Virus record (IMG/VR): IMGVR_UViG_2681813146_000002
DNA from: a virus
Lineage: Duplodnaviria; Heunggongvirae; Uroviricota; Caudoviricetes
Reading direction: 5' to 3' (one strand)
Length of the DNA stretch: 47,946 nt
Shown here: one piece after another, positions 5,852-35,741 of the stretch
Layout of the letters: the number at the start of each line of letters is the position of its first letter
How positions within the stretch are numbered: the stretch's first letter is position 1
Position numbers and translations under genes: made by a program
Notes under the pieces: generated by a model
What the model was told of the DNA's origin: nothing
The model's database searches: none
The model's input: the letters and a program-made list of their open reading frames with translations, nothing else

Positions 5852-6472
5852 ATGAATGATTTAGAAACATTATTACGTCAGACTATAAGAGTTGGCGTTG
5901 TTTCTGATATTGATGATGGTGATGTTACAGCAAGAGTTACTTTCGATGATCAGGATAACGTCACTTCGGCAAAGTTATCAGTTATTGTGAAAAACACAGA
6001 TAAGAATGCTGATTACTGGATGCCAGATATTGGCGAGCAGGTTTTGTGTATCTTTCATCCCGCGGGGCCGCAACAAGGTTTTATTCTTGGTAGTTTTTAT
6101 GATGAAACACAGAAGCCGCCATCTAATACTGTTAATAAACGCGTCATTAGATTTAATAACGGAACTCGTATTGAGGTAGACAGAGAATCTAATTTACTCC
6201 TTGTTGATGCTGTCGGAGATGTAACCGTTAAGGCTACAGGAACCGTAACTATTGATGCTCCAGAAACCATCATTACCGGAAATGCTACAGTTGAAGGATT
6301 ACTAACCTTCAAAGGTGGAATGAAAGGATCTTCTGCTGGAGGTGTTGCAGCTACAATTTCTGGGGATGTTAAGGTTGTTGGTGGTGATATAGATGTTGAT
6401 GGGATTAAATCTAAAGGCCACCATCACACAGCTCAGGGGGAATACGCTCCGACAACGGAGGCTCAGGCATGA
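5852..6472 (+). CDS. Baseplate spike protein (gpV-like)
   Basis: 206 aa. N-terminal pattern resembles the Phage_base_V family; glycine-rich C-terminus. Confidence 0.6.
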   Translation: MNDLETLLRQTIRVGVVSDIDDGDVTARVTFDDQDNVTSAKLSVIVKNTDKNADYWMPDIGEQVLCIFHPAGPQQGFILGSFYDETQKPPSNTVNKRVIRFNNGTRIEVDRESNLLLVDAVGDVTVKATGTVTIDAPETIITGNATVEGLLTFKGGMKGSSAGGVAATISGDVKVVGGDIDVDGIKSKGHHHTAQGEYAPTTEAQA

Positions 6473-12578: not shown

Positions 12579-13106
12579 ATGATGCACTTAAAGAACATAA
12601 AAGCGGGCAACGCTAAAACACTGGAACAGTATGAGTTAACAAAGAAACACGGAGTTATCTGGCTTTACTCTGAGGACGGAAAAAACTGGTATGAGGAAGT
12701 GAAAAACTTTCAGCCAGACACAATAAAGATTGTTTACGATGCAAATAATATTATTGTCGCCATCACTAAAGATGCCTCTACGCTTAACCCTGAAGGTTTT
12801 AGCGTTGTTGAGGTTCCTGATATTACCTCCAACCGACGTGCTGATGACTCAGGTAAATGGATGTTTAAGGATGGTGCCGTGATTAAGCGGATTTATACGG
12901 CAGGCGAACAGCAACAACAGGCCGAATCACAAAAGGCCACGTTACTTTCCGAAGCTGAATCAGTTATCCGGCCGCTGGAACGCGCTGTCAGGCTGAGCAT
13001 GGCAACAGATGAGGAGCGTAGCCGACTGGAAGCCTGGGAACGTTACAGTGTTCTTGTCAGTCGCGTGGACACAGCAAACCCCGAATGGCCAGACAAACCA
13101 GAATAA
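12579..13106 (+). CDS. Tail fibre assembly chaperone (Tfa-like)
   Basis: 175 aa immediately after the fibre gene. N-terminal pattern typical of Tfa proteins. Confidence 0.6.
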
Positions 13107-13261
13107 AGGAGTGTTGTTATGTTCATCATTGACTGGAGTTAGCCCAGTAGTATGATGCTCGCAAAACGAGATCCAATTTAGATCCTTTTACTGGTGGATT
13201 ATCGTTCGATCAGCGAGAGACTTCGTGCATGACCGAAAGTGTTGTGGTAGAGTTCTCTTAA

Positions 13262-13278
13262 AACCACGTAACGTGGTT
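13262..13278. promoter_or_regulatory. Operator-like palindrome AACCACGT-A-ACGTGGTT upstream of the repA control region
   Basis: Perfect 8-bp arms. Same AACCAC-N5-GTGGTT architecture as the palindromes flanking the CI-like gene. Confidence 0.5.
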
Positions 13279-13325
13279 ATGATTGTGGGTGTCTGGTTGG
13301 AAAATGACCAGATATGGAAACAAAA

Positions 13326-13349
13326 AGCCCGCAGATAAATCTGCGGGCT
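13326..13349. ncRNA. CopA-like stem-loop in the repA leader (candidate antisense RNA or target hairpin)
   Basis: Hairpin AGCCCGCAGATAAATCTGCGGGCT followed by a second long stem (arms 13360..13375 and 13416..13431) spanning the repA start region. Transcript strand not determined. Confidence 0.4.
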
Positions 13350-13446
13350 TCTTGCGACATCCACGGAAAACCAACAACCAATTAACCATGGGCGCCTCGA
13401 CAACTCCCATTATACGTTGGTTTTCCGTGGACGCAAGAGCGAACAT

Positions 13447-14295
13447 ATGGATAGACCAATGCCGTCTCTACGTTCCGCTTACGTTTGTAATTTGTCGCCG
13501 GAGTTCCAGCCTCCAAAGCACCATACGCACAAGCTGCCGCTGGTGTTATCTGATGCTTTACAGCGCATTAATGGGCGTGATCTTACGTGTGAGGTTGCGT
13601 TCTACGTTAATCAACCGTCAGAGCGGAAGCGTCGGATAAACGAGCATCGTCGTCGGGCGATTAATGCTGTGATTGCTGCGATTTTGCACCATGTAAACAT
13701 CATTTCTAAGCGGGTTCTGGCCAGTGCTGAGGCGTTGGCTGATTTTTGCGGCCTGTCTACCGTATCCGAAGCTGGGAACAAGTCTATAACACGCTGTACA
13801 AGGGCGTTGTCGCAACTGAAAGCGTTAGGTTTTATTGATTATGAACGTCGCTGGGATCGGGTGAATAAACAGTATTGGCCAGCGAAAATAGAGATTCGTG
13901 ATCAACTGCTGGAAACCGTTGGTATTACTGAACAAGCATGGAGACGTGCGGTTAGCCAGAAACTTAATTACTTCAATGCGAAGAATAGCGAACGGCTTAA
14001 AAAAGCGATAACGGAGGCTGATTATAAGCGTATTGTTATTCAGGAGCAGATGGAGAATGTATGGCGTCAGAGGAAGACGGCCAGAGAGATAAAGGCAAAA
14101 CAGAAAGCAGCGGAGAGAGCTGCGCGTCTTGTTCGGGAAAAGGGAGAGGCCGAACTTCGTCATCAAATCACTAGAGAGGTTAGCCAGGAATTTGCTGATG
14201 GCATGTATCCTGGAGCTGACCTTGCATATTTACGATCCCTCGTTGAGCAGCGTTATAACAGGTTAAGAAAGACCTGGAAATCACTCCAACATTAA
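13447..14295 (+). CDS. repA: Plasmid replication initiator, IncFII RepA1-like
   Basis: The segment SITRCTRALSQLKALGFIDYERRWD and the basic C-terminus resemble IncFII RepA1 as I recall it. Start is uncertain: TTG 13417, ATG 13447 or ATG 13459. Confidence 0.6.
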   Translation: MDRPMPSLRSAYVCNLSPEFQPPKHHTHKLPLVLSDALQRINGRDLTCEVAFYVNQPSERKRRINEHRRRAINAVIAAILHHVNIISKRVLASAEALADFCGLSTVSEAGNKSITRCTRALSQLKALGFIDYERRWDRVNKQYWPAKIEIRDQLLETVGITEQAWRRAVSQKLNYFNAKNSERLKKAITEADYKRIVIQEQMENVWRQRKTAREIKAKQKAAERAARLVREKGEAELRHQITREVSQEFADGMYPGADLAYLRSLVEQRYNRLRKTWKSLQH

Positions 14296-14436
14296 CCCAC
14301 CTGAATGATGAATCCGGTTTTACCGGAGGATTATCTACGTCGCAATAAAATATCTGTTCAAAAAACAATCTAAATTAGTTTTCTCTAAACCTGAACACAG
14401 CAAAAATATCGCCTTTACAGGCATCGGCTAATAAAG

Positions 14437-14445
14437 TTATCCACA
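14437..14445 (+). promoter_or_regulatory. DnaA box TTATCCACA in the candidate origin downstream of repA
   Basis: Exact consensus 9-mer about 140 bp after the repA stop, in an AT-rich noncoding stretch. Confidence 0.5.
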
Positions 14446-14545
14446 GTTTTGATATGTATATGCAAATGGTTTTTTATAATAGATGCACTAAACAAATAAA
14501 TGCAAAATCACTTTCTTTTATTAAAACTTTCTTTATTTAACTTAC

Positions 14546-14730
14546 GCAGGCTTTGCCTGTGAATATGTTCGCCCTTGCAGCGAGCTAAAGCTCGCGCCGG
14601 TTCGAGTCGCTACGCTCAAATATACCTCCTCCGGCACTTGCCGGAGGCATGGAGCAGCCTGATCATCCTTTTCGAAACGGCGCGTTTCGAACTATACAAA
14701 ATCAATTTATATAAGGCCGAAATAAGGCCT
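14546..14730. other. Cluster of at least five short GC-rich hairpins in the origin-proximal noncoding region
   Basis: Inverted repeats CAGGCTTTGCCTG, GCGAGCTAAAGCTCGC, CCTCCGGCACTTGCCGGAGG, TTCGAAACGGCGCGTTTCGAA and AGGCCGAAATAAGGCCT. Confidence 0.4.
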
Positions 14731-14938
14731 ACGGCCGGGCTTTGCAGGAGGAAGGGGCGAGCCTTATCAATAAACGTCGATAAATACGCACACAGTAGCC
14801 ATCAGAACGCGATAAAACGTAAGAAACATCATTTCCTATTAGACATAGAAAACTTGTCTTATACGCAATGTAGTAAATTTCTATTGCCACATAGGAAAAG
14901 ATTTCCTACCATCGTAGATATAATAAATGGAGATGGTT

Positions 14939-15226
14939 ATGGATAAAGATACTGTTTTAAAAATGTTGAATCCGGCTTGTTTAAAAAAAGCGGATGAATG
15001 GGAATCTCCTACATGTGGAGAAGTTCGGGCAGTCATTGGCCTGACCGGAATGAGTGGCTCGCAGTTGGCCAAAAAACTAGGCTTAAAAGATAGCCGCAAT
15101 GTTCGCAACTGGCAGATGTTAAAGGAGTCCACATCCAGATCCAGCATTCCGTATGCAGCCTGGGCGCTGCTGTGTTACTTCGCTGGGTTAGGGTTAATCT
15201 TCATTGATAACAAAACAGATGTTTGA
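14939..15226 (+). CDS. Putative DNA-binding protein with a C-terminal hydrophobic segment
   Basis: HTH-like segment MSGSQLAKKLGL and C-terminal AAWALLCYFAGLGLIFI. Start taken after GGAG; ATG 14927 is an alternative. Confidence 0.35.
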   Translation: MDKDTVLKMLNPACLKKADEWESPTCGEVRAVIGLTGMSGSQLAKKLGLKDSRNVRNWQMLKESTSRSSIPYAAWALLCYFAGLGLIFIDNKTDV

Positions 15227-15249
15227 AACATGCAAATATGAGGTTTGTT

Positions 15250-15513
15250 ATGGAACTTGTACGCAAAACACGCAAAGAGTTCTTGGACCTGTATCGCATG
15301 GGAGCTTTCACTTGTGTTGTGGCTACCCAGGACGAAGTGACAAAAAGCTGGCGGCTTTTTGCTCTCAATAAAAAAGGGATTGCCGTTTTTATTGAAAAAG
15401 CCCGTGGTGGTATCCGCGAATGGGCGGGATTGAATTATGTGGCTGATTTTTGCGCAGCTATGGGGATTCGTCGCTGGGAAGTCCATATGCCAGGAGTAAA
15501 GTCACAAAAATAG
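15250..15513 (+). CDS. Hypothetical protein
   Basis: ORF downstream of the preceding gene. Start chosen at MELVRK after a GAGG-like ribosome-binding site. Confidence 0.35.
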   Translation: MELVRKTRKEFLDLYRMGAFTCVVATQDEVTKSWRLFALNKKGIAVFIEKARGGIREWAGLNYVADFCAAMGIRRWEVHMPGVKSQK

Positions 15514-15757
15514 GGCTTTCGCGTCGAAAATGAGGCGAAACTGAAAACGAGATTTCATTAACAAATAAGCAACATAAAAAACGGTGGAAAACGCCCAGGA
15601 AAACATGATCTTTTGAGCGGATTTTTTAGATCCGACAATGAACGGTGATCCGGTGGTGCCGATAACGTCCATTATGTTAAATAGCCCCGTTTTTCTTGAA
15701 ATTATAACCTACGGGTTATATAGTCAGTGGTATAAACTACAGGTTATAGGATTGAGC

Positions 15758-16105
15758 ATGTGGACGGTACTTTTTAGCCAGCGATTTGACGACTGGCTAA
15801 ATGAGCAAGAAGACGCTCTTCAGGAAAAGGTTTTGGCTGATTTGAAAAATCTACAGGTTTACGGACCTGAGTTACCCAGGCCATATGCCGATACCGTAAA
15901 AGGTTCTCGGTACAAAAATATGAAAGAGCTTCGCGTTCAGTTTTCTGGCCGTCCGATAAGAGCCTTTTATGCGTTCGATCCGATTCGCCGGGCTATCGTT
16001 CTTTGTGCAGGAGACAAAAGTAACGATAAGCGGTTTTATAAAAAACTGGTGCGTATAGCTGAGGATGAGTTTGCAGCACATCTGAACACACTGGAGAGCA
16101 AGTAA
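15758..16105 (+). CDS. higB: Toxin of a type II toxin-antitoxin pair (RelE/ParE superfamily, HigB / Gp49-like)
   Basis: Motifs RAFYAFDPIRRAIVLCAGDKSNDKRFY typical of Gp49/HigB-like toxins. Start ATG 15758 after AGGA. Followed by an HTH partner with overlapping stop/start. Confidence 0.6.
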   Translation: MWTVLFSQRFDDWLNEQEDALQEKVLADLKNLQVYGPELPRPYADTVKGSRYKNMKELRVQFSGRPIRAFYAFDPIRRAIVLCAGDKSNDKRFYKKLVRIAEDEFAAHLNTLESK

Positions 16106-16404
16106 TGAGAACATTAGATGAGGTGATTGCCAGCCGTTCACCTGAAAGCCAGGCGCGAATTAAAGAAATGGCAGATGAGATGATTCTTGAGGTCGGCTTG
16201 CAGATGATGCGTGAAGAACTCCAGTTATCACAAAAACAGGTTGCTGAGGCGATGGGTATTAGTCAGCCAGCAGTAACAAAGCTGGAGCAGCGCGGAAATG
16301 ATTTAAAGCTGGCGACATTAAAGCGTTACGTTGAAGCTATGGGAGGCAAATTAAGCCTGGATGTTGAGCTTCCCACAGGAAAACGAATAGCGTTTAACAT
16401 CTGA
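16105..16404 (+). CDS. higA: Antitoxin, XRE-family HTH (HigA-like)
   Basis: 99 aa with HTH LSQKQVAEAMGISQPAVTKLE. Translationally coupled to the toxin gene. Confidence 0.6.
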   Translation: MRTLDEVIASRSPESQARIKEMADEMILEVGLQMMREELQLSQKQVAEAMGISQPAVTKLEQRGNDLKLATLKRYVEAMGGKLSLDVELPTGKRIAFNI

Positions 16405-16418
16405 TCAGAACGAATGAT

Positions 16419-16447
16419 AAGCCCCTGTTGCAAAGGGGCTTTTTTGT
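16419..16447 (+). terminator. Rho-independent terminator after the toxin-antitoxin pair
   Basis: GCCCCTGTTGCAAAGGGGC hairpin followed by a T-run. Confidence 0.6.
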
Positions 16448-16450
16448 GCT

Positions 16451-16568
16451 CATAGAATTATATAATTATAGATTTATATAAAAAAGCGCTTTACGGGTGG
16501 GAAAAAATTTCCTAAGGTTATACCCGAAACCGAGCGATACCCGCCCTGGTTAAACCGGAGATAACCCG
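16451..16568 (+). promoter_or_regulatory. Conserved promoter/operator/leader cassette, copy A
   Basis: AT-rich palindrome, then TTTACG-N17-TAAGGT, then leader CCGAAACCGAGCGATACCCGCCCTGGTTAAACCGGAGATAACCCG before the ATG. Near-identical to copies at 25843 and 33034. Confidence 0.55.
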
Positions 16569-16949
16569 ATGAGCATGATTAAAATCCGCAAAGACGCTTT
16601 CCTTAAAATTCAAACTATCCTGGCTGGTTCTGTTGGCGTGATTTGCCGTTCTTCTTCAAGCCGCATCGATGACGGCTACGATGATGAGTATCGTGTGTCC
16701 TCGTGCGACGAGGCTTTAACCTGGCTGAAGGAGAATCAGGAACGTGCCCAGGTATATCTGGAAACAGAGAACGGCAATCAGATGTTGCGTATTAGCGGTC
16801 GTTATGGATTTGAAACTACATTCATGGCCTATTTTAATCAGGCTTACTTTGACAAGGAGTTGGCCTGGTACACTGATCGCATGAGCAAAAGCGAGCCAGC
16901 CCCGATTACACCGCCGAACAATAAACCATTTTTATTCCTCGTTAAGTAA
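16569..16949 (+). CDS. Hypothetical protein, cassette-driven accessory gene
   Basis: 126-aa ORF immediately after cassette copy A. Confidence 0.45.
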   Translation: MSMIKIRKDAFLKIQTILAGSVGVICRSSSSRIDDGYDDEYRVSSCDEALTWLKENQERAQVYLETENGNQMLRISGRYGFETTFMAYFNQAYFDKELAWYTDRMSKSEPAPITPPNNKPFLFLVK

Positions 16950-17012
16950 ACACAATGCGCAAAGTGTCATTTTGACACTTTGCGAGTGTTAATATTGTGC
17001 GAGGAGGGTGCT

Positions 17013-17285
17013 ATGACGGGTTATGAATTGAAATTATGGCGTCGTGGGATGAACTGGACGCAGGAGCGAGCCGCCGAAGAATTTGGGATATCGTTGGCTA
17101 CATATAAGCGATATGAGAAGGGGGAGCCGCCGAGGGTCATTGAGATGGCCATTCGCGTTCTGTCGTTTGACGATATGGTTAAGGATCTTTCACACCTTGA
17201 TAAAGATGCGATTCTGTTAAGGCTGCAAACCCTTGTATGGGAAAAGGTTAAAGTGTCGTCAGAATTGGAACAAGGGATCAAATGA
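17013..17285 (+). CDS. XRE-family HTH protein
   Basis: HTH WTQERAAEEFGISLATYKRYE. Start ATG 17013 after GAGGAGG. Confidence 0.5.
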   Translation: MTGYELKLWRRGMNWTQERAAEEFGISLATYKRYEKGEPPRVIEMAIRVLSFDDMVKDLSHLDKDAILLRLQTLVWEKVKVSSELEQGIK

Positions 17286-17336
17286 TCCTTTACGGATCGT
17301 TTTATGGTGGTGTAATGTAAGCGCCAGAAAGACAAA

Positions 17337-17360
17337 AACCGCCTTGCCGGGCGGTTTTCA
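17337..17360 (+). terminator. Rho-independent terminator
   Basis: AACCGCCTTGCCGGGCGGTTTT hairpin with a T-run. Confidence 0.55.
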
Positions 17361-17920
17361 GTCTGAAATTTAAATCTTGCTTGGTAGGCTGGATTTAAAA
17401 AGACACCTCTTGATTGGGGCGGCTTTCTTGCGTCTAAAGATAATCAAATCTTTTTGCGCCTGCAACCCCTTTTTTACTGGTGCCTGTTTCAGACTCACGC
17501 TCGCGTCGTTGTCTTTGCCACTTCGTTGGGTTCGGTGTTTTTGGGCGAAGTGGCGCGCGGGTATGCGTACAAGGGGAAAGTGTGCTGACGCAAGCCAGGA
17601 ACAGCGATCTAAACTAAGTCGAGTCTGAGAAAGGCAGGAGTGCGACAACTCGCCTGTGCTCTATGAGCAGAAGAAGGTATATCAGACGACCAATGGCATG
17701 ATTGTGGGCCACAGGGCGCACACGGCGGCGAAGCATTGGAAACGATGTGGAGCTATCTGGTGGCATGAGTTCCGGTACTCGATCTCGAGCTTTTTTTGAT
17801 GCTTTTGAGAAGGGGCCGGAACTCCGGTAAAGGGCACCCTGTATGGGGGGAGGGGGGGTTGTGTCTTAAGGAAGATCTAATACGATATTGCTTTACCCTT
17901 ATATCTAAAAGGAGATTTCT

Positions 17921-18556
17921 ATGGGGATGCTGGTGGCGTTTATTATTAGCCTGATTTTGTGTTTCTTCGTAGTTCGTGGCGCATATCGGAAACAATGTGC
18001 CTCGTCTTCTGGTGGTAAGTTCAAAGCTGTTTTAGTGAGTGGCTTTCTCGGGATTGCAACTTTTGTAGTTGTTAATACTCTTGCGGCTGTGACCTTGATC
18101 CCAGAAGACTCCAACACTGCGGCTACTACCGGAGCTGCTTTTGATGGTGTGACCGTAGATAAGTTTAAGAGGTTATATAATGATGACCTTGAAGGCATCG
18201 CTACATCAGGAAAAGCCACCTCCCCTATAAGAATTAAGTCAGTTAAACAAGGTAACAACACCGTTGAATTTGCCATCAATTCATCTGTTAACGGTCGAGC
18301 TAGAGTTGATAAGGATGGGAAGATTTCAGAGTTATTATGGCGAGTATCTAAGCCTAGCTCTGATTCCTTGCTTTCTATGGCCGTAGCTGTTGAAGTCTTG
18401 GATGCATCAAGTGATAGAGACACAGTGATCGCGCAGTTAGAGCAGATTGTTAAATCTGATACGCAGAAAGCTGAGTTTAAGACTAAGAGAGGCGAGTATT
18501 ACGTTTCTCGTGACAAATCAGGGCACGTGTCGCTACTGATTACACCGAAATATTAA
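17921..18556 (+). CDS. Membrane-anchored protein, candidate superinfection-exclusion or moron product
   Basis: 211 aa with two N-terminal hydrophobic helices and a Ser/Thr-rich soluble domain. Flanked by terminators. Confidence 0.4.
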   Translation: MGMLVAFIISLILCFFVVRGAYRKQCASSSGGKFKAVLVSGFLGIATFVVVNTLAAVTLIPEDSNTAATTGAAFDGVTVDKFKRLYNDDLEGIATSGKATSPIRIKSVKQGNNTVEFAINSSVNGRARVDKDGKISELLWRVSKPSSDSLLSMAVAVEVLDASSDRDTVIAQLEQIVKSDTQKAEFKTKRGEYYVSRDKSGHVSLLITPKY

Positions 18557-18566
18557 GAATTGAAGA

Positions 18567-18594
18567 AGCGCCCAAATCGGGCGCTTTGTTTTAT
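18567..18594. terminator. Bidirectional terminator between convergent genes
   Basis: AGCGCCCAAATCGGGCGCT hairpin with flanking T/A runs. Confidence 0.55.
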
Positions 18595-19733
18595 GGTTTT
18601 GCACCTGCGGCCAGTTTATCCGCAGATATCTTTATCAGTTCCTGTAGTGTCCTGGCTGGTAGGTTTGCATCCAGTACGCTGAGTATGCTGTTGTGATCTG
18701 CCTGGTCGACTACTTTGCCTGTCGGTGGTAGTAGCTTGAGCTGAGGATTCAGGTTTTCGTCAAAGCTGATCAGTGCTCTGGCGTTTCTGAGCAGATCAAG
18801 AAGTAAGGCTGATATCACATTTTCCTGAGTCATTGCTGGCAGATTTAGCGCCGCTTTGGTTTTCCCTGTTGCCTTGTCAAACTCCTTGATTAGTTTCTTC
18901 CTGTAGTTCGGTTCCGTTAATAGCCGATTATGCTCTGTTGCCGCGCGGATAATCGTTTTTTCCTGGTACAGTCGTTTAGCCAGATCACGCTCGTACTGTG
19001 TTTTTAACACGCTGCTGATAGCGTTAAAGGCTTCAATGTAGGCCAGCTTGATATCTTTCACGCCTGGACCGTCGATACTCTCCATGAGCAAGGTAAATCC
19101 GTCTTTTGTCATGCGATAGATTGTTATTTCGCGGTCGCTTCCTTCCAACGGTCGTTGCTCTTTAAAGAAATGACGCGCCGCAGCTGTGCGAGGAATGCGT
19201 AACGCATCGATGGCCATAACGATGGAATTGTTTGTGGTGCTGAATGCTTGGGCAACATCGGCTGAGGTTGTGAGTGGCTCGTTATTGCACACCTTAATGT
19301 AAAACATCGGTTTGGCGTTGAGCGTATCGACAACCTCACGAGCATTGTTTGGCGAGACGGTTACGGTCGCGGCCGTTTGCGCGTTCTGGTTGAAGTAGCA
19401 GTCTTCCAGCCGTTCGAATACATCCCACGCCTGATCGGTTTCGAGCATTTTAGCGTGACGTGCAGCCCCGCGTTCGGTCCAGAGAATTAGGGAGCGGGCA
19501 TTTTTACCAACTAACCCGATTGTTTCGGGTCTGTTCTTGAACTCGCGTAATTCGTTTTTTTCAATTTTAAAGTAATGCTTTCCGGCTACGAATCGCGTCG
19601 TGTTGTTCAGAAAGTTATCAGAAATGTTTTTGATTTTTGTTCCGTATAACTGCGCCAGAAGTTCACTAGTGATAACGGGGATCTGGTTATGCAGGATAGG
19701 CTGTAGGGTGTTAACGGTCGGAAGCGTTTTCAT
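18591..19733 (-). CDS. Antirepressor, Rha-family N-terminal domain with KilAC-like C-terminal region
   Basis: 380 aa. N-terminal region resembles phage regulatory protein Rha by recollection. Confidence 0.55.
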   Translation of the reverse strand: MKTLPTVNTLQPILHNQIPVITSELLAQLYGTKIKNISDNFLNNTTRFVAGKHYFKIEKNELREFKNRPETIGLVGKNARSLILWTERGAARHAKMLETDQAWDVFERLEDCYFNQNAQTAATVTVSPNNAREVVDTLNAKPMFYIKVCNNEPLTTSADVAQAFSTTNNSIVMAIDALRIPRTAAARHFFKEQRPLEGSDREITIYRMTKDGFTLLMESIDGPGVKDIKLAYIEAFNAISSVLKTQYERDLAKRLYQEKTIIRAATEHNRLLTEPNYRKKLIKEFDKATGKTKAALNLPAMTQENVISALLLDLLRNARALISFDENLNPQLKLLPPTGKVVDQADHNSILSVLDANLPARTLQELIKISADKLAAGAKP

Positions 19734-19921
19734 TTTGCACCTCCCATAACTACTTTGGTTACGAGGGAGATTTTTGCGTCAGAAACAGCGTTATCGTTGC
19801 TGGCGATGCGCATAGCTTCGCGCTCGATGATTTCAGCCAGGCGGAATTTATCGGCGTATGAGGCTTTCTTGAGAAGGATCTTTACGAGGTTGACGTAATA
19901 GTCATGGGGTAGGTTTGTCAT
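19730..19921 (-). CDS. Small protein upstream of and coupled to the antirepressor
   Basis: Start taken at the internal ATG after GGAG; the longer ORF extends to 19957. Stop overlaps the antirepressor start. Confidence 0.35.
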   Translation of the reverse strand: MTNLPHDYYVNLVKILLKKASYADKFRLAEIIEREAMRIASNDNAVSDAKISLVTKVVMGGAK

Positions 19922-20215
19922 TGTGATATCTCCAGTATATGGAACTATCACCGCCATTCGAGGCTAATCAAATGGTGGTGAGCCGTACAGGGTTAGCCTT
20001 ACCGGACACAATGACGAACCGGCGCGGATTTCTCCGCCCCTGTACGACCCACCATAATTTGGGCGTAACAGTGCTCTACGCATAAAAAAACCGCTAACGC
20101 GGTATGCGCCATCGTGTTATTCAGGAGGCTAATCCCGGCCGTAGATTTTGCTACGGCTCGGAAAGTGTCCACCAATGGCGCATTTATGTCAATACGGCGG
20201 GATTTTAACAGAGAC

Positions 20216-20232
20216 AACCACATAGTGTGGGT
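20216..20232. promoter_or_regulatory. Operator-like site AACCAC-ATAGT-GTGGGT upstream of the antirepressor operon
   Basis: Matches the AACCAC-N5-GTGGTT family with one mismatch. Confidence 0.4.
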
Positions 20233-20674
20233 TTATTGGTAGGCAGAAACAAAAAAACCGCCCTATTGAGGACGGTTCTTTCGTGCTGATCGGATTCGCG
20301 GTCCTTTCAGCATTACGTTGTTGTATAAACAACCACGCAAGCACAAGCAGCAAGTTAATTTTACCCAAAAGGTAATAATAGTCCACTATTATGCTTCATA
20401 AAATTGTGGTTCTTGTTGTGCCTGCAAACTCACAGATTGTGGGTAGGTTACTGATTTTGTGAAAATAAACGAGTTTTTTCGTTTAATTTCTTTCCTATAA
20501 CTAATCTTAAAATAATCGTAAAATACCTGTGGACCTTCCCGCCGATTCGCACCCGGGCACCGACTTTAGGGGAGGATTCTCCGTTGCCGTACATGCAAGC
20601 ACAAGCAGCCGTGCTTGCTCTCGCGTTGTTTTCGTCGGTGGGGATGCCGTGAAACGGCCTGTAAGGGCCATACA

Positions 20675-20797
20675 ATGAAAAAATACTGTATGTGTATTTT
20701 TATCGTTGTTACTGGAGCTTTGTTTACGCCACATGGGGAGGGTTGGAAGATTACTGATAACGCTCTGAATGTGACGATAAACATTAGCAGCAAGTAG
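20675..20797 (+). CDS. Small hydrophobic peptide (40 aa), candidate membrane toxin or moron peptide
   Basis: MKKYCMCIFIVVTGALFTPHGEGWKITDNALNVTINISSK after an AAGGG ribosome-binding site, followed at once by a strong terminator. No Hok motif. Confidence 0.3.
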   Translation: MKKYCMCIFIVVTGALFTPHGEGWKITDNALNVTINISSK

Positions 20798-20802
20798 CGA
20801 TT

Positions 20803-20826
20803 AGGCCCCTTCGGGGGCCTTTTTTA
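20803..20826 (+). terminator. Rho-independent terminator
   Basis: AGGCCCCTTCGGGGGCCT hairpin followed by TTTTTT. Confidence 0.65.
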
Positions 20827-21047
20827 TGGTTGAATTTAAACGCTGGAGCGCATTAAACCTTTCAGAACTGCTTCACGTACCCATTCTGGCCTGGTAGATA
20901 GCAGGGCAAATAAGCAACCAGCTTGCAGCCGTTTGAGGTCGGTTAGACGAGTTTTCAGTAACCGTGTATATTGTTGCTCGGACATAACAAATTCCCCTTG
21001 TTGTGTCGCGACGGCCAACAGTTGGCGCTGGAGGCCGTCACCTTCTC

Positions 21048-21296
21048 TTACTTCTGGTTGTATTGAGCCTTGAGTAACTCAAAAGATTTTGTCAGCACTT
21101 CTTTCAATGACATATCCATTGAGCTGGCGAACGTTTTGTACTCGCGTTTAAATTCAGGGTCGACGTTAAACGCCATTTGTGCCCCACCTGATTTGGTTCT
21201 GGTCGGCGTTTCAGTCGGGTCGAAAACCTGCGGTTGTTCGATTGATGGCGGTACGCCTTTGCTGTTCTTTTTCGGTGGTTTTGATGGTGCGGCCAT
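21048..21296 (-). CDS. Centromere-binding partition protein, ParG-like (ribbon-helix-helix)
   Basis: 82 aa with a disordered basic N-terminus and a C-terminal RHH-like segment. Immediately downstream of the ParA-like gene. Confidence 0.5.
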   Translation of the reverse strand: MAAPSKPPKKNSKGVPPSIEQPQVFDPTETPTRTKSGGAQMAFNVDPEFKREYKTFASSMDMSLKEVLTKSFELLKAQYNQK

Positions 21297-21339
21297 GTGT
21301 ATCCCCTTTTATATAAATCTATAAAACTATAATTATATA

Positions 21340-21993
21340 TTACGCGGCAGTAGTCAGAGCCTCAAGCTGATTGATAATCCCCTGGATAACATCGTCTGCC
21401 TTTTTGCGTGGCGCAACGTATGAGCACTCAATAAGGCTTAAGCCCTTATCCTGAGCTTTGCTCAGAGCTGGCTTGTGGGGAATGTACTTATCGACAACAA
21501 AGTATGGCGTATTAGCCAGGTACTCTTGGGCTTCAATATAGTCAGCTTCGTTTTCAGCCGCGCCGGAAAACACCATGCAAATTTTCTTGATTGGTACACC
21601 CTTTTTAACGATGCCGTGAGCTGTGTTAACGGTGGTTTCCAGGTCATCGGTAGAGAATCTGGTTGGCAAAATAACCATATCCAGAAATTCAGAGAGCTTC
21701 GGTACTGATTCAGATGCGTAGGCACCGCCATCGACGATAACCAGGTCGTATACTTCTGATTCGATGATTTTCTGGACTTGTGATGGTGTGCCGCACGGCT
21801 GCGCCGCGATTGCTGGTTCGATATTGTTGGCCATTCTGCGTTGTACCCAACGCGTTACCGTTCCGTTAAGCACATCCATATCGATCAGGCATACATTCCA
21901 GCCAGCCTTTGCATAAGCAACTGCTAAAGCACGGGCAATTGTTGATTTGGTTACGCCGCCTTTTCCGTTGAAAATACCTACAGAGATAGTCAT
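21340..21993 (-). CDS. parA: Partition ATPase, ParA/ParF-like
   Basis: Deviant Walker A GKGGVTKST near the N-terminus. Start taken at MTISV; the longer ORF extends to 22008. Confidence 0.7.
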   Translation of the reverse strand: MTISVGIFNGKGGVTKSTIARALAVAYAKAGWNVCLIDMDVLNGTVTRWVQRRMANNIEPAIAAQPCGTPSQVQKIIESEVYDLVIVDGGAYASESVPKLSEFLDMVILPTRFSTDDLETTVNTAHGIVKKGVPIKKICMVFSGAAENEADYIEAQEYLANTPYFVVDKYIPHKPALSKAQDKGLSLIECSYVAPRKKADDVIQGIINQLEALTTAA

Positions 21994-22020
21994 TTGTCGA
22001 GACTCCATGTGTTTGGTTAT

Positions 22021-22118
22021 ATAATTCTATAAATCTATATTTATAGAACGAGGTAAGCATAACCAACTTTTTGGCGGATGAAAAGCGTTTTATATAATTA
22101 TATAAATCTATAATCATA
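22021..22118. repeat. AT-rich palindromic repeat units upstream of the ParA-like gene (candidate centromere/operator)
   Basis: Repeated TATAATTCTATAAATCTATATTTATAGA and TATATAATTATATAAATCTATAATCATATA units. A related unit lies at about 21303..21332 upstream of the ParG-like gene. Confidence 0.5.
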
Positions 22119-22143
22119 TAAGCGGGCGTTAGCCCGCTTGCAG

Positions 22144-22518
22144 TCAGAGGTCAGCTATCGTTGATATCAGTTGATTTGCTAGCTGTCGCTGTTTACGTGA
22201 GAGGGTTAGAGCTGCTTCTGAGCGGTCGCTAAGAGGGGTATTCTCATCGAGAATCATGAGGCATACAGAAATGATAGCTCTGTTATATGCCATCAATGAC
22301 TGGCACAGCTTTGATACAGAAGGCACATCGTATTGTAAGGCTGTTTTGAGGCAGGCTTTTTGCTCGTAAGCAAGATGAAGGGTAGATGATATCCAGTCGA
22401 TATCTTTCTCATTATCAATGATTTGGCATAACATACACTCAATCGCTATGTTCAACGCTTGGATTTCGATTCCAGCAGTGATCAGAGTTTCGTTTTTATT
22501 GGCTGTATGTAATTCCAT
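22144..22518 (-). CDS. Hypothetical protein between the repressor gene and the partition genes
   Basis: 124-aa ORF. No recognisable motif. Confidence 0.35.
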   Translation of the reverse strand: MELHTANKNETLITAGIEIQALNIAIECMLCQIIDNEKDIDWISSTLHLAYEQKACLKTALQYDVPSVSKLCQSLMAYNRAIISVCLMILDENTPLSDRSEAALTLSRKQRQLANQLISTIADL

Positions 22519-22610
22519 GCGTAGCCTCTTTTATACTTTCACATGTTGTCAAAACCACAAAATGTGGTTTTTTTGAGCGTAGAAATGCACGGCTTTCGCC
22601 GTGCTGTGTA

Positions 22611-23267
22611 TCATAACCAGTTGACAACACTAACTACGCGGCCCAGAACTTTATAACGCTTAAATTCCTCGTTATTCAGATGCTTAGTGTTCATTTCAGC
22701 ATCCCTTTCGGTTGACAGCATAACAGCATTGTCACCCGGTATGACTCTACAGTGCCTCAAAACAACCAGGCCATTTCTGTCTTCAAGGGCATAGATCCCC
22801 TCATGAATCTCTGTATCGTCTGTATCAATCAGGACTTGGGAGCCAGGGGATATTGTTGGTGACATTAACTCATCGTTGCTCTGGAGAACTGACAGAGACG
22901 ATGGGTTGATGTTCTTGCTTCGTAGAATCTCCTGTTCTATCGCCAGCACTGGCTTTTCTCCGGCGTGCGATGCTATGTCATTTTTTATAGCTACAAGCCC
23001 AGGAATAACAGGAGCGTTAGTATTCTGGGGTGGGAACGGGTTATCTGTTAAGCACGCGATATAAGGCGCTGATGCTTTCAGGGCGTGCGCGATTTTCTTG
23101 ATGGCAGGTATAGATGGTTGTCTTAATCCGGCCTCATAGTTCTGCAAGGTGCTTAAGCCTATTCCAGTGACTTGCTGGAGATCTCCGGCAGTCATGCCGG
23201 ATTGTTTCCGTAGAGTCTGAATGCGCAGACCTATTTCTTTCTTGATGTTCTCGTCGTTGCTTTTCAT
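22611..23267 (-). CDS. Prophage repressor, CI-like (XRE HTH plus S24 LexA-type C-terminal domain)
   Basis: N-terminal HTH IGLRIQTLRKQSGMTAGDLQQVTGIGLSTLQNYE. C-terminal S24-like region. Divergent from a Cro-like gene with palindromes in between. Confidence 0.65.
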   Translation of the reverse strand: MKSNDENIKKEIGLRIQTLRKQSGMTAGDLQQVTGIGLSTLQNYEAGLRQPSIPAIKKIAHALKASAPYIACLTDNPFPPQNTNAPVIPGLVAIKNDIASHAGEKPVLAIEQEILRSKNINPSSLSVLQSNDELMSPTISPGSQVLIDTDDTEIHEGIYALEDRNGLVVLRHCRVIPGDNAVMLSTERDAEMNTKHLNNEEFKRYKVLGRVVSVVNWL

Positions 23268-23299
23268 GTCTCATCAATCGTGAATGGTGGGTTATTTAT

Positions 23300-23425
23300 A
23301 CATTACCACATTTAGTGGTTTTCACATGGTAAGACGAGAGGTGGACCACAAATAGAAGGTTATTTTTTGTTTTGCCCATTGAAAAACTCACGATATGTGG
23401 TTTTAATACCACATATCGTGGTTTT
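23300..23425. promoter_or_regulatory. Divergent immunity promoter/operator region
   Basis: Operator-like sites 23304..23320 and 23407..23423, plus a perfect 12-bp inverted repeat CACGATATGTGG/CCACATATCGTG at 23389..23420. A further site lies at 22553..22569. Confidence 0.55.
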
Positions 23426-23441: not shown

Positions 23442-23936
23442 ATGACCTTTCAGGAGTGGGTTGACGAAAATGGAGGCCAAATTGGTGTTGCCAGAAAGTT
23501 TGGCTTTACGTCATCACTGATTGGTGCCTGGTATCGCTTCGAGAGATTCCCTCGTGCGGATAACCTGACGCTGCTGGTGGCGTATTCGGAAGGCCGGATT
23601 AACGTCCAGCAATGGGCGGCAGATTTTGCCGAACGTCAGCGCCAGCGTAGCGATGGCACATCGGTTCGGCAGAACAAGATCAAAGGGAATCTCCCTGTTA
23701 ACTGCTTATCAAGGCTGAAAGCGGTTTTCTCTGAGTTGGGGATGCCTGCGGAGCGTTGCAATCTACGCGGTCCGCGATTCATTGCTCGCTGGAAACACTC
23801 ACACGTAACCGTTTCAGAGGTTCGTGATGCGATTACCGTGCTGGAGCTTAAGAATAAAGATTCCAGCGATATCGAGCTGATTCATAAGGAGATTAGCAAC
23901 GCCCGGCGTTCAGCACTTGGGAGGCTTGAGGAATGA
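23442..23936 (+). CDS. Cro-like regulator (YdaS / DUF1019-like HTH)
   Basis: N-terminus FQEWVDENGGQIGVARKFGFTSSLIGAWY resembles YdaS-type Cro proteins. Divergent from the repressor gene. Confidence 0.5.
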   Translation: MTFQEWVDENGGQIGVARKFGFTSSLIGAWYRFERFPRADNLTLLVAYSEGRINVQQWAADFAERQRQRSDGTSVRQNKIKGNLPVNCLSRLKAVFSELGMPAERCNLRGPRFIARWKHSHVTVSEVRDAITVLELKNKDSSDIELIHKEISNARRSALGRLEE

Positions 23937-25792: not shown

Positions 25793-25842
25793 AAGTGTCA
25801 TTTTGAGCTTTTTGATGGTGTGTAGACATCGGGAACATCGAA

Positions 25843-25960
25843 AATCTATAAATATATAATTATATATTTATATAAAAAGTGCTTTACAGGTGGGAAAAAA
25901 TTTCCTAAGGTTATACCCGAAACCGAGCGATACCCGCCCTGGTTAAACCGGAGAAATCTG
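25843..25960 (+). promoter_or_regulatory. Conserved promoter/operator/leader cassette, copy B
   Basis: Same AT-rich palindrome, TTTACA-N17-TAAGGT and leader as copy A, ending at the ATG of the next gene. Confidence 0.55.
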
Positions 25961-27028
25961 ATGAATAAACAAGTAATTATTTCTGACTGGATCAACAACC
26001 CTAACAGCCTGTTAAGCACTGATACTGGCTACCTATTACGCCATGTTAATGGTCGTATGGTCAAAAGCGATGAGCACGAAACCTTTTTCTTTGTTGAAGA
26101 CGATGGGCGCATCTATGAGGATGGTTACTCTTATGAAGCCCAAACTGGTTGTATCCCTGCGGAGCTGGTGGACGTAACAGAAGATCTGCGCAAAGCATGG
26201 CTTGAACAGCAGCAGCGCGGAGATGATTACGTAAACACCTATCAGGAACGCCAGAACGCGCGTCTTGCCCGATATATTGCTCGTGCAGAAAAAGCCAGAA
26301 AAGAAGGTGCGGTAGCGCATAAGCGAGCGCATGACCTGTTGGATGTGATCCCGTTAGGCCAGCCGATTTTAGTTGACCATTATAGCGCGAAAGGCCATCG
26401 CCGCCGTTTGTCTAAAGCTGATGCGTTATTCAGAAAAGCGTTTGTTGAATGCGAAAGTAAAGCATCACACTACGAGAGCAAAGCCGCAGGTGTTGGTCGT
26501 AATGGAATTTCGTCTGATGATCCTGATGCGCTATTTAAGTTGCTTCGTAAGCTGCAAGGCTGCATGAAGTCACACGTCAAAATGAAGGCCGCAAATAAGG
26601 CCATTCGCAAATACAAAAAAGACCATTTACAGCAGCTTTCTGCATTAATCGATCTCAGGTTTACAGAAAGCGAAGCCAAAGAGTTACTGGCCGGAGATTT
26701 CTGTGGGCGCATCGGATTCCCTTCATACGCACTGAGCAACAATAACGCCGAAATCAAACGACTACAGAGCCGTATTAAGGAGCTTGAATCGGTCAAGTCT
26801 GTAACAGGAGCACAGCGCGAAGAATACGACGGCTTTTCTATGGAGATAGATCCAGAGGATAACCGCATCCTGTTTTATTTCCCTGGCAAACCAGAGGCAA
26901 ACATTCGTTCGCTGCTTAAATCACGCGCCTTTAAGTGGAGTCCAACCCGTAATGCATGGGTTCGCAAGATTACTCCAAACGCTCTGGCTGATGCCCGATA
27001 TCTGAAAGAATCGCTATTGAAAGCCTGA
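25961..27028 (+). CDS. Hypothetical protein, possibly DUF3560-containing
   Basis: 355 aa with motif GQPILVDHYSAKGHRRR. Cassette-driven. Confidence 0.4.
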   Translation: MNKQVIISDWINNPNSLLSTDTGYLLRHVNGRMVKSDEHETFFFVEDDGRIYEDGYSYEAQTGCIPAELVDVTEDLRKAWLEQQQRGDDYVNTYQERQNARLARYIARAEKARKEGAVAHKRAHDLLDVIPLGQPILVDHYSAKGHRRRLSKADALFRKAFVECESKASHYESKAAGVGRNGISSDDPDALFKLLRKLQGCMKSHVKMKAANKAIRKYKKDHLQQLSALIDLRFTESEAKELLAGDFCGRIGFPSYALSNNNAEIKRLQSRIKELESVKSVTGAQREEYDGFSMEIDPEDNRILFYFPGKPEANIRSLLKSRAFKWSPTRNAWVRKITPNALADARYLKESLLKA

Positions 27029-32067: not shown

Positions 32068-32143
32068 GGCCCCTTAGCTCAGTGGTTAGAGCAGGCGACT
32101 CATAATCGCACGGTCATCGGTTCAAATCCGGTAGGGGCCACCA
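32068..32143 (+). tRNA. tRNA with anticodon CAT (Met, or Ile2 if lysidine-modified), CCA encoded
   Basis: Manual cloverleaf: acceptor GGCCCCT/AGGGGCC, D-arm GCTC..GAGC, anticodon loop CTCATAA, T-arm with TTCAAAT loop, discriminator A plus CCA. Confidence 0.8.
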
Positions 32144-32450: not shown

Positions 32451-33038
32451 ATGGAGGCAATTGCATTGTTTAATCTGATTTATGCAGATCCCCCCTGGGA
32501 ATACAAAGACAAGTGTAAGGATGGGAATCGTGGCGCTGGTTTTAAGTATCCAACGATGAAAGCTGAGGATATTGCTCGTATTCCTGTCTGGCAGCTTGCT
32601 AATCCTGAATCGTGTTTGTTGGCCATGTGGTGGGTTCCGACTCAGCCAGAAGAAGCGTTGCTGGTGGTGAAAGCATGGGGATTCAGGCTGATGACCATGA
32701 AGGGCTTCACATGGAACAAATGTGGTAGCCGACAACCAGATAAGCTGGTGATGGGGATGGGGCATATGACTCGTGCAAACAGTGAAGATTGCTTGTTTGC
32801 GGTAAAAGGCAAACTGCCGACCCGCCTTGATGCGGGGATCATTCAGTCGTTTACATCGCCTCGTCTGGAGCATTCTCGGAAGCCTGATGTGGTTCGTGAC
32901 AAGCTGGTAAGGCTGTTAGGTGATGTTCCCCGTATTGAGCTGTTTGCTCGCGGTGATTTACCTGATGGCTGGCATGGCTGGGGCAACCAGTGCAATGGAG
33001 GTATCCAGTTGCATGATGCTCTCTGGCAAGTGGCATAG
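32451..33038 (+). CDS. MT-A70-family N6-adenine DNA methyltransferase
   Basis: DPPW catalytic motif in LIYADPPWEY. Size 195 aa. Confidence 0.65.
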   Translation: MEAIALFNLIYADPPWEYKDKCKDGNRGAGFKYPTMKAEDIARIPVWQLANPESCLLAMWWVPTQPEEALLVVKAWGFRLMTMKGFTWNKCGSRQPDKLVMGMGHMTRANSEDCLFAVKGKLPTRLDAGIIQSFTSPRLEHSRKPDVVRDKLVRLLGDVPRIELFARGDLPDGWHGWGNQCNGGIQLHDALWQVA

Positions 33039-33150
33039 AATTATATAATTATATATTTATATAAAAAGCGCTTTACAGGTGGGAAAAAATTTCCTATGGT
33101 TATACCCGAAACCGAGCGATACCCGCCCTGGTTAAACCGGAGATAACCCG
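33034..33150 (+). promoter_or_regulatory. Conserved promoter/operator/leader cassette, copy C
   Basis: Near-identical to copies A and B (TATGGT in place of TAAGGT). Begins at the methyltransferase stop codon. Confidence 0.55.
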
Positions 33151-33420
33151 ATGAAAGTACAAGACCGTGAAGTAGTAAAAAACCTCCTGCAATACCTGAC
33201 CTCAAAAAACCTGACGGGCAGCGTTGAGTTCCGTGAAGCGTTAAAACATTTCAACGTCACTACGGTTTATCGTTGGGAAAACCAACATTCTGAAAGACCG
33301 TATGTGGTGGATGTTTTTGCGCCTGATATTGAGTGCGGTTTTGAGCGCCATTCATTCAAAAAGAAACATTCCGCTGATGTTTTTTGTGAGGTTGTATGTG
33401 CGGCAGGAGATGATGAGTGA
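33151..33420 (+). CDS. Hypothetical protein, cassette-driven
   Basis: 89-aa ORF immediately after cassette copy C. Confidence 0.4.
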   Translation: MKVQDREVVKNLLQYLTSKNLTGSVEFREALKHFNVTTVYRWENQHSERPYVVDVFAPDIECGFERHSFKKKHSADVFCEVVCAAGDDE

Positions 33421-35117: not shown

Positions 35118-35741
35118 ATGACAAAACATCTTAATGTGGTTTCTTTACCACTTTCTGTGTTGATTGGTTATGAAAAGAACGCTCGCACACACTCCGTGGA
35201 GCAGGTAGATCAGATTGTTGCCAGCATACAGGAGTACGGATGGACTAATCCGATCCTGATAGACGAGAACAACGTTGTAATTGCTGGTCATGGTCGAATT
35301 GCTGCGGCCACTCAGTTGGGGATGGATGATGTTCCCTGCATTGTTCTGGAAGGGCTAACGGAGAATCAGAAGAAGGCATATCGTCTGGCCGACAACCGTA
35401 TTCCGCTGAATGCTGGTTGGGATGAAGAGTTGTTAAGCGCGGAGCTTGCAGATCTTGCGGCCGATGATTTTGCTCTGGACTCAATTGGTTTTACTCAGCG
35501 CGAGCTGGATAACTTATTGAGTGCGGCGGTCTACGATGACACAGAGGGTATGGATATCCCATTTGAGAAGGATGAGGCCAAATCAGGCGTAAAAGTTCAG
35601 TACCTGTCATTTGGAGGTCATAAAATCCCGGCAACGGATGAGGAAGCAGATCGTTTTGACTGCGCGGTATCTCGTTATGTTGATGATAATGGCAGCTATA
35701 TCGGATTTGTATCCGCATTGCTGGCTGGGGAGGTGTGCTGA
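35118..35741 (+). CDS. ParB-N-domain (ParB/Srx-fold) protein, copy 1
   Basis: Motif VVIAGHGRIAAATQLG. Paralogous to 38408..38998. Confidence 0.55.
   Translation: MTKHLNVVSLPLSVLIGYEKNARTHSVEQVDQIVASIQEYGWTNPILIDENNVVIAGHGRIAAATQLGMDDVPCIVLEGLTENQKKAYRLADNRIPLNAGWDEELLSAELADLAADDFALDSIGFTQRELDNLLSAAVYDDTEGMDIPFEKDEAKSGVKVQYLSFGGHKIPATDEEADRFDCAVSRYVDDNGSYIGFVSALLAGEVC

Follow-up and report, generated by a model that had tools for sequence, protein, structure and literature searches.

A single family of 17-bp palindromic sites, AACCAC-N5-GTGGTT, recurs in the E. coli phage-plasmid described here, a virus sequence of 47,946 nucleotides (nt) deposited as IMG/VR record IMGVR_UViG_2681813146_000002. 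We refer to this whole 47.9-kb stretch, which is a complete or nearly complete element, as the window. Phage-plasmids have two lifestyles to reconcile. Because one site family stands at the immunity switch, at the antirepressor operon and at the promoter of the replication gene repA, plasmid replication is probably under the control of the prophage repressor as well. We estimate a probability of about 0.7 that the operators at the switch, past the distal end of the repressor gene cI (the position of the lambda O_L operator), at repA and at the antirepressor operon form the regulon of one 218-amino-acid (aa) CI-like repressor, with induction through the antirepressor. The six sites are:

13262 to 13278: O_rep, upstream of repA; perfect operator AACCAC-GTAAC-GTGGTT
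20216 to 20232: O_ant, upstream of the antirepressor operon; AACCAC-ATAGT-GTGGGT
22553 to 22569: operator in the O_L position; perfect AACCAC-AAAAT-GTGGTT
23304 to 23320: operator next to the cI start
23386 to 23402 and 23407 to 23423: two operators, 21 bp apart centre to centre, over the putative rightward promoter

The sites at 13262 to 13278 and 22553 to 22569 match the palindrome exactly (0 exact matches expected from 100 shuffles), and those at 20216 to 20232, 23304 to 23320 and 23407 to 23423 depart from it at one position. The initial annotation had listed these five palindromes, and all were found where it had placed them; the sixth, at 23386 to 23402 (ACTCACGATATGTGGTT), which has two mismatches, it had overlooked. 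All six are intergenic. Allowing up to two mismatches gave seven matches in the window against 1.6 expected. We rejected the seventh (35125 to 35141) as an operator: it falls inside a gene for a ParB-like nuclease, in the coding sequence, and its score of 10.8 bits in the matrix scan described below is noise. In a motif-free check of all perfect 5-N5-5 palindromes in the window, the arm that recurred most often was that of ACCAC-N5-GTGGT (four copies), a number that any such arm reached in 7 of 300 shuffles.

To avoid circularity, we scanned the whole window with a position weight matrix (PWM) whose training set, drawn from six lineages, was limited to the three switch sites (those lying between cI and the early operon). 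The two top-scoring sites lay outside the training region, at 13262 and 22553 (24.8 bits each). The site at 20216 ranked sixth (18.3 bits), a weak seventh site appeared at 20428 to 20444 (14.0 bits), and everything else scored 11 bits or less. Random Markov sequences of the length of the window gave 0.02 sites of at least 18 bits and 0.08 sites of at least 14 bits, whereas the window holds six of at least 18 bits. A motif scan of the whole element had been set beforehand as the test of the operator family, and on both the exact-match and the PWM counts the arms occur far above chance.

A related half-site, GATTGTGGGT, had been reported along with the palindromes at 6471, 13281, 17701 and 20438; we rejected it as a chance recurrence that is not conserved. 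Exact copies lie at 6471, 13281 and 20435 (not 20438), and the copy at 17700 carries a mismatch; with one mismatch allowed, 11 of 100 shuffles did equally well. Recurrent words of this class are frequent in the window, which has 199 10-mers with at least three copies against a mean of 44 in shuffles. The 13281 copy reads GAATGCGGGA or GTATGCGGGG in relatives, and that at 6471 coincides with the start of a tail gene. The copy at 20435 alone is meaningful: it forms the right arm of the weak full site found at 20428 to 20444. What survives of the earlier proposal that one repressor ties immunity to plasmid replication is thus the family of full operators, which appears to link the switch, the antirepressor operon and repA; the half-sites drop out of it. 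As a separate matter of composition, the plus strand has 28 copies of the hexamer GTGGTT against 7 of its complement AACCAC, a bias that probably reflects the composition of the coding strand and not operators.

The comparison that follows draws on a family of related elements. The window has myovirus head and tail genes and is best explained as a circular phage-plasmid of ~48 kb; the records of its relatives are circular. The family includes three Yersinia pestis phages, vB_YpM_39, vB_YpM_41 and vB_YpM_44 (circular 49-kb records), which are 97% identical to the window over the region of interest. In E. coli, about 60 non-mobilizable plasmids of ~48 kb, including that of ATCC 25922, show 96–98% identity to the window. 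About 62 plasmids in PLSDB are members, and 72 of 5426 complete E. coli genomes carry one. Relatives also occur in Salmonella, Citrobacter, Klebsiella and Yokenella. Those in Salmonella have diverged (~76% identity in the repA leader), and CI homologues with 61–67% identity lie on contigs of ~46–49 kb from Citrobacter freundii, C. amalonaticus, Klebsiella aerogenes, Yokenella and Salmonella. The ATCC 25922 plasmid (NZ_CP009073.1) has all six operators, at 13017, 19476, 22601, 23359, 23440 and 23461.

The arms of the operators are held fixed across this family. The three switch sites are present in every lineage examined, the perfect site just past the end of cI in every lineage from E. coli to Yokenella, and the perfect site upstream of repA in every lineage whose examined DNA extends to repA. 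We aligned five sites from six or seven lineages, with their 5-bp spacers and 20-bp flanks, and found 4 of 60 arm columns variable, against 144 of 225 spacer and flank columns (Fisher p = 8e-17). At O_rep, all 12 arm columns were invariant, while 4 of 5 spacer columns and 17 of 40 flank columns varied; the spacer reads GTAAC, GTTGT or GATGT across lineages. At the cI-distal site, the arms were again invariant (seven lineages), and all 5 spacer columns and 29 of 40 flank columns varied. Among near-identical E. coli copies, the few within-site polymorphisms all fell in spacers. Fixed arms around free spacers are, as far as sequence can tell, the signature of a dimeric helix-turn-helix (HTH) protein that touches the arms.

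We regard it as very improbable that the palindromes near repA and the antirepressor operon are chance matches or functionless fossils. Short palindromes are indeed common in the window (78 perfect 5-N5-5 palindromes, against about 51 in shuffles), and O_ant is missing from some lineages. Such an explanation would nevertheless have to accommodate O_rep arms that stay perfect in every lineage amid changing spacers and flanks, a null expectation of 0.02 sites at such scores, and sites that are intergenic and set against promoter elements. For O_rep and the O_L-position site, the PWM ranks, the footprint and the null model effectively refute it.

The protein most likely to bind these sites is encoded at the switch, where two divergent genes flank the operator cluster:

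22611 to 23267, minus strand: cI, CI-like repressor of 218 aa with an HTH_3 domain and an S24-like C-terminal domain (Pfam)
23442 to 23936, plus strand: first rightward early gene, 164 aa, phrog_7452

The repressor matches PF01381 HTH_3 (43 bits, above the cutoff) and the PHROG 4 transcriptional repressor family (1.8e-27), and its residues 113 to 212 match PF00717 Peptidase_S24 at 20.0 bits, below the cutoff of 23.3. Its Pfam matches did not include the P1 C1 family. Between lineages, its N-terminal HTH domain is 79–86% identical and its C-terminal domain 50–59%; the conserved HTH domain fits the unchanged operator arms. The three switch operators cluster between the divergent cI gene and early operon, over promoter-like hexamers. 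The operator next to the cI start overlaps the spacer and −35 of a putative leftward promoter (−10 TATAAA, 23300 to 23295). The other two lie on a putative rightward promoter ahead of the gene at 23442, TTGAAA (23379 to 23384)-17-TTTAAT (23402 to 23407), across its spacer and −10/+1 region.

Could another encoded protein be the main binder, with repA switched in lytic growth? The candidates would be the 164-aa early product or the small HTH proteins encoded at 16980 to 17628, and we consider this quite unlikely. Cro-type proteins often share CI operators, conservation leaves the binder unnamed, and an N-terminal helical segment of the 164-aa protein (GGQxGVAR..G..SS.IG.W) looks HTH-like by eye. 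However, that protein, which is known only from this phage-plasmid family, has no support for an HTH from Pfam, PDB or a confident structure: it had no Pfam match even at E ≤ 5 and no PDB sequence match, BLASTP against lambda Cro and a PDB profile search gave nothing usable, and its AlphaFold2 model reached a predicted local distance difference test (pLDDT) score of 56. ‘Cro-like’ is therefore a positional label only. Furthermore, the Cro protein of phiKO2/PY54 binds one operator only and not the repA sites (PMC4997575), and in the present family it is the conserved CI HTH domain that tracks the conserved arms. A second binder would in any case be an addition to control by CI more than an exclusive alternative to it.

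The same repressor offers a clue to induction. In one MAFFT alignment with LexA and lambda CI, which makes the reading moderately secure, we did not see a Ser/Lys dyad: the repressor has DELM where LexA and lambda CI have G(M/N)SM, and there is no Lys in its LRHCRV segment. Both DELM[SA]PT and LRHCRV are conserved throughout the repressor family. The dyad serves RecA-stimulated self-cleavage and marks repressors of the lambda/LexA subtype, as opposed to the N15 subtype. Since it appears to be lacking, RecA-mediated cleavage is unlikely, and the repressor is probably not RecA-cleavable, like CB of phage N15. We rejected a self-cleaving CI or SOS control on the same ground and because no LexA box was found near the antirepressor operon; the sole CTGT-N8-ACAG in the window lies in a late gene, at chance level. 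Without the S24 dyad, induction via the antirepressor, not self-cleavage, is to be expected, and it is the likely route.

The operator that would connect immunity to replication stands at the head of the repA control region:

13129 to 13156, plus strand: upstream promoter-like TTGACT-16-TATGAT (10 of 12 in a consensus scan), with −35 and −10 conserved in Salmonella relatives
13245 to 13253, plus strand: candidate repA promoter, extended −10 TGGTAGAGT, predicted start at ~13260
13319 to 13433, minus strand: candidate CopA-like countertranscript, antisense to the repA leader, with a long stem-loop and a terminator hairpin with a U-run
13447 to 14295, plus strand: repA, IncFII-type initiator; reading frame open from TTG 13417
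14437 to 14445, plus strand: the sole perfect DnaA box in the window, 140 bp past repA, in an AT-rich gap

The extended −10, TGnTAGAGT, is conserved in all lineages. O_rep begins about 8 bp past it and thus would cover about +2 to +19 of the candidate promoter, an overlap that is predicted rather than mapped. An alternative repA −10, TATGAT at 13278 to 13283, was rejected as not conserved. The promoter-like element at 13129 to 13156 is possibly a constitutive read-through promoter. Folded on the minus strand, 13319 to 13433 reaches −68 kcal/mol (z = −8.8) in a shape like that of CopA-type countertranscripts; against Rfam it had no CopA match, only sub-threshold terminator-type matches. RepA itself matches PF02387 IncFII_repA at 150 bits, and the copies in relatives are annotated as RepA. 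The AT-rich gap with the DnaA box after repA is the probable oriR.

This replicon appears to have no copB. We found no plus-strand open reading frame (ORF) of at least 50 aa between 13107 and 13283, and no minus-strand gene left of O_rep that the site might serve; the phage-type operator occupies the spot where the CopB operator would be. In one part of its sequence, RepA is ~31–40% identical to classical IncFII RepA proteins. The most similar RepA from beyond the family (36% identity) is encoded on a conjugative KPC plasmid which, taken as a negative control, is without the operator motif; the operator is therefore specific to the phage-plasmid family.

Two small reading frames lie in this region. 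One is a tiny conserved ORF within 13229 to 13261, just before O_rep, which reads MTESVVVEFS* in the window and MESVMIEFF* in Salmonella. The other is a conserved ATG-initiated frame in the hairpin loop of the repA leader (13388 to 13450; ATGGGCGCCTCGACAAC...) that runs into repA. Both are possible tap-type leader peptides. To the left of the control region, the segment 12579 to 13125 is mosaic with respect to relatives: the window has a tail-fibre assembly gene up to ~13106, and most relatives have a hin-type invertase gene with invertible tail-fibre segments. Homology with relatives resumes at ~13125, just ahead of the promoter-like site at 13129 to 13156.

The third arm of the proposed regulon is the antirepressor operon, transcribed leftward from behind O_ant:

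20202 to 20210, minus strand: Pa, putative upstream promoter read from its extended −10 TGTTAAAAT
20164 to 20192, minus strand: Pb, TTGACA (20192 to 20187)-17-GACACT (20169 to 20164)
20157 to 20084, minus strand: isrK (RF01394, 68 bits, above the gathering score)
20059 to 19971, minus strand: C4 antisense RNA (RF01695, 70.8 bits, gathering score 45), also in relatives
19730 to 19957, minus strand: small ORF ahead of the antirepressor gene
18591 to 19733, minus strand: ORF6N/Rha antirepressor (PF10543 and PF09669; PHROG anti-repressor families down to 1e-66)
20428 to 20444: weak candidate site ACTCAC-AGATT-GTGGGT (14.0 bits; 0.08 such sites per window in the null)

O_ant covers the −35 region of Pa (roughly −37 to −21) and sits 23 nt upstream of the −35 of Pb. 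No operator lies on Pb, whose predicted start at 20157 is the exact 5′ end of isrK and which is conserved in all lineages with the antirepressor module, including those in Salmonella and Citrobacter. All loci of the E. coli lineage have O_ant, and so does C. amalonaticus, where the operator reads AACCACAATGCGTGATT at the same 23-nt distance and TGGTAGATT stands at the position of the Pa extended −10. Relatives of the E. coli lineage diverge in sequence exactly at the outer edge of O_ant, which suggests that the site travels with the antirepressor module. The site claimed upstream of the antirepressor operon is therefore there in the window, but it is lineage-specific and lies on the upstream promoter, not on the main isrK promoter.

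The weak candidate site at 20428 to 20444 overlaps a minus-strand promoter-like TTCACA-16-CACAAT; past it lies a structured minus-strand region of ~190 nt (20236 to 20432; fold z = −5.4) with a terminator at 20245 to 20275. This region is divergent from a full-length match to the ryfA RNA (142 bits) at 20529 to 20825 on the plus strand, which is cargo between the antirepressor operon and the par genes and which we take to be a timP-like small-toxin locus. Among the E. coli records listed with the exact segment, 20236 to 20825 has no annotated genes.

At the opposite end of cI, the order on the cI strand is the cI stop codon, a GC hairpin (22588 to 22605) with a T-run, the perfect operator at 22553 to 22569, ~20 nt, and the Shine-Dalgarno sequence and ATG of orf124 (22144 to 22518; phrog_7632, function unknown), followed by parA and an 82-aa gene. 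In non-E. coli lineages the hairpin is a good terminator. This position matches that of lambda O_L. Here the operator might repress orf124 (or a weak promoter of it) or act as a looping partner.

Taken together, the presence, placement and conservation of the sites suggest a mechanism; what follows beyond them is our inference. A dimer of the CI-like repressor would bind the 17-bp operators through the arms (A/T)ACCAC and GTGG(T/G)T, leaving the 5-bp centre without contacts. The two operators over the rightward early promoter would keep the lytic genes off, and the one over the leftward promoter would serve autoregulation of cI. At O_rep, the repressor would hold repA transcription at a basal level, in the role that CopB has in classical IncFII replicons, and the CopA-like antisense RNA would fine-tune repA translation. 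In the E. coli and C. amalonaticus lineages, repressor at O_ant would block Pa, the presumably stronger, upstream promoter, and a constitutive Pb would keep C4 RNA made in the lysogen, as in P1 immI. Loss of the repressor would then de-repress the early genes and repA together, giving more replication from the sole recognisable initiator. A bolder version holds that CI has replaced CopB in an antisense-controlled IncFII replicon that is the element’s only replication system, that O_rep is a switch between maintenance and run-away replication, and that antirepressor induction is gated by C4. On that version the family would have arrived at the N15 arrangement a second time, independently and without homology, on a circular IncFII element; this we offer only tentatively, as a possibility that we would not favour on present evidence.

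A number of points weigh against the proposed regulon. Conservation alone does not tell which protein binds, and we found no lineage with altered operator specificity: all family members have the same arms. That search compared CI with phage records, a set of 5.8 billion proteins and metagenomes, and RepA with IMG/VR and GTDB; no GTDB genome with a RepA alignment was found, and more distant CI homologues (≤41% identity) sit on short unrelated contigs. The promoter assignments are consensus readings. Transcription from 13129 to 13156 could cross O_rep, in which case the repressor would act there as a roadblock only. By Pfam, no second replication initiator, helicase or primase was found among the early genes; many early ORFs are of unknown function and might include an unrecognised module for lytic replication. 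O_ant is missing in the Salmonella and C. freundii lineages, which have only Pb, and the K. aerogenes contig stretch examined has no antirepressor module; the link from repressor to antirepressor is therefore not essential. Literature searches by phage name, accession and phage-plasmid group name found nothing specific to the family (pSLy3, of 114 kb, is another element). Finally, no sigma-70 hexamers at the O_L-position site were convincing or conserved across lineages.

The last point bears on a different use of the same sites. If one protein binds all of them, O_rep and the O_L-position site might serve mainly as partners in looping or as sinks for the repressor, making the switch sharper but hardly influencing repA transcription directly. 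In lambda, looping between OL and OR sharpens the early-promoter switch. Besides the want of a recognisable promoter at O_L, both distal sites are single and perfect, as high-affinity anchors would be, and for phiKO2 CB oligomerisation and possible long-range cooperation have been discussed (PMC4997575). On the other hand, O_rep lies 10 kb from the switch, which is inefficient for a single dimer site, and in all lineages it stands right next to a conserved −10-like element of the repA leader; the equivalent sites of N15 and phiKO2 do repress repA. We therefore judge looping or titration as the main role unlikely, and retain direct control of repA by CI as the preferred interpretation.

Some other features of the window were also noted. 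A ParA gene lies at 21340 to 22008 (profile match). A tRNA gene at 32068 to 32140 on the plus strand (67 bits) stands amid genes of the lysis and late region, and is tRNA-Ile in the annotation of the ATCC 25922 plasmid. A cassette of ~120 bp occurs three times (16440 to 16575, 25833 to 25968 and 33022 to 33157; ~91–100% identity) and contains an AT-rich TATAATTATATATTTATATAA block, a promoter-like TTTACA...TATAC, a common leader, GGAG and ATG. Each copy stands at the head of a different operon; these begin with a 126-aa ORF, a DUF3560 gene and an 89-aa ORF, and the cassette looks like a second regulon, separate from the CI operators. In addition, an AT-rich array of TATAA/TATAG-like units (32-nt units) has nine intergenic copies, at 16450, 21309, 22017, 22090, 25844, 27061, 31898, 31906 and 33033; of these, two fall in the gap that separates orf124 from parA, and a third in that between parA and the 82-aa gene. 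These arrays could be centromere or global-regulator sites for a small ParB/ParG-like protein.

The element combines, as annotated here, a lambda-type repressor with a P1-immI-like antirepressor module and a copB-less IncFII-like replicon, and each part can be set beside a known system. The likeness to lambda lies in the 17-bp operators, in a partly similar half-site (lambda OL1 is TACCAC-TGGCG-GTGATA; compare TACCAC-N5-GTGGTT in the window), in the triple site between divergent repressor and early genes, and in the further site past the distal end of the repressor gene. Unlike in lambda, the three switch sites are spaced 82 and 21 bp apart, the O_L position holds a single site, the repressor has no Ser/Lys dyad, and repA and ant are extra members of the regulon.

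With P1/P7 immI the window shares the order of operator, promoter(s), C4 RNA, small ORF and antirepressor, as well as two tandem promoters with the operator on the upstream one only. It differs in that the repressor is of the lambda-type HTH_3 class, isrK stands ahead of C4, and the antirepressor is an ORF6N+Rha fusion. To our knowledge, P1 C1 does not control repA of the P1 plasmid replicon. Within immI, C1 represses c4-icd-ant transcription and C4 RNA is also needed to keep Ant off, which means that the lysogen must retain some of the promoter activity (PMC8198154).

The resemblance to IncFII plasmids (R1/R100) extends to the IncFII-type RepA, a strongly structured candidate countertranscript with a terminator in the repA leader, a putative repressible promoter just upstream of the antisense target, a further upstream promoter-like site that could read through, and a DnaA box with an AT-rich region past repA. 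In the classical control of R1, CopB represses the repA promoter and CopA blocks translation. The window, in contrast, lacks copB and has a phage-repressor operator at the corresponding position.

The closest functional parallel is N15. We know of experimental evidence for wiring of immunity to copy number in very few phage-plasmids, essentially N15 and phiKO2. N15 is induced via an antirepressor and uses RepA for both plasmid and lytic replication; its RepA is a large multidomain protein of the primase/helicase type. That of the window belongs to another family, IncFII_repA, with a candidate CopA-like antisense RNA. In N15 the interval between cB and repA itself contains two 16-bp OL sites, whereas the window has a single repA site 9.3 kb from cI and a separate site in the O_L position. 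The operators are also of different design (17-bp AACCAC-N5-GTGGTT in the window, 16-bp T-A-N10-T-A in N15), and N15 is a linear telomere phage-plasmid, in contrast to the circular relatives of the window. N15 was not among the phage matches of the window CI listed (40 of 106, E ≤ 1e-5). The N15-like character that the initial annotation proposed is therefore an analogy of function and not family membership. Its account of the precedent was accurate: CB of N15/phiKO2 occupies OR1-3 as well as a pair of OL operators on the promoter of repA; it represses that gene, and the copy number falls (PMC4997575). CB lacks the residues conserved in self-cleaving repressors (PMC4997575), as the window CI appears to. 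Control of repA by CB couples immunity to copy number (PMC4997575); in the window, the operator at repA would do likewise.

The principle of a repressor acting on repA is thus already known from N15/phiKO2; the family described here is common and appears unstudied. Since the ATCC 25922 plasmid has all six sites, the prediction is cheap to test, partly from existing RNA-seq and coverage data. If the coupling is real, cI and O_rep offer a simple handle on copy number in these plasmids, which occur in clinical isolates. It would also mean that repressor control of replication has evolved convergently, on a replicon of an unrelated type.

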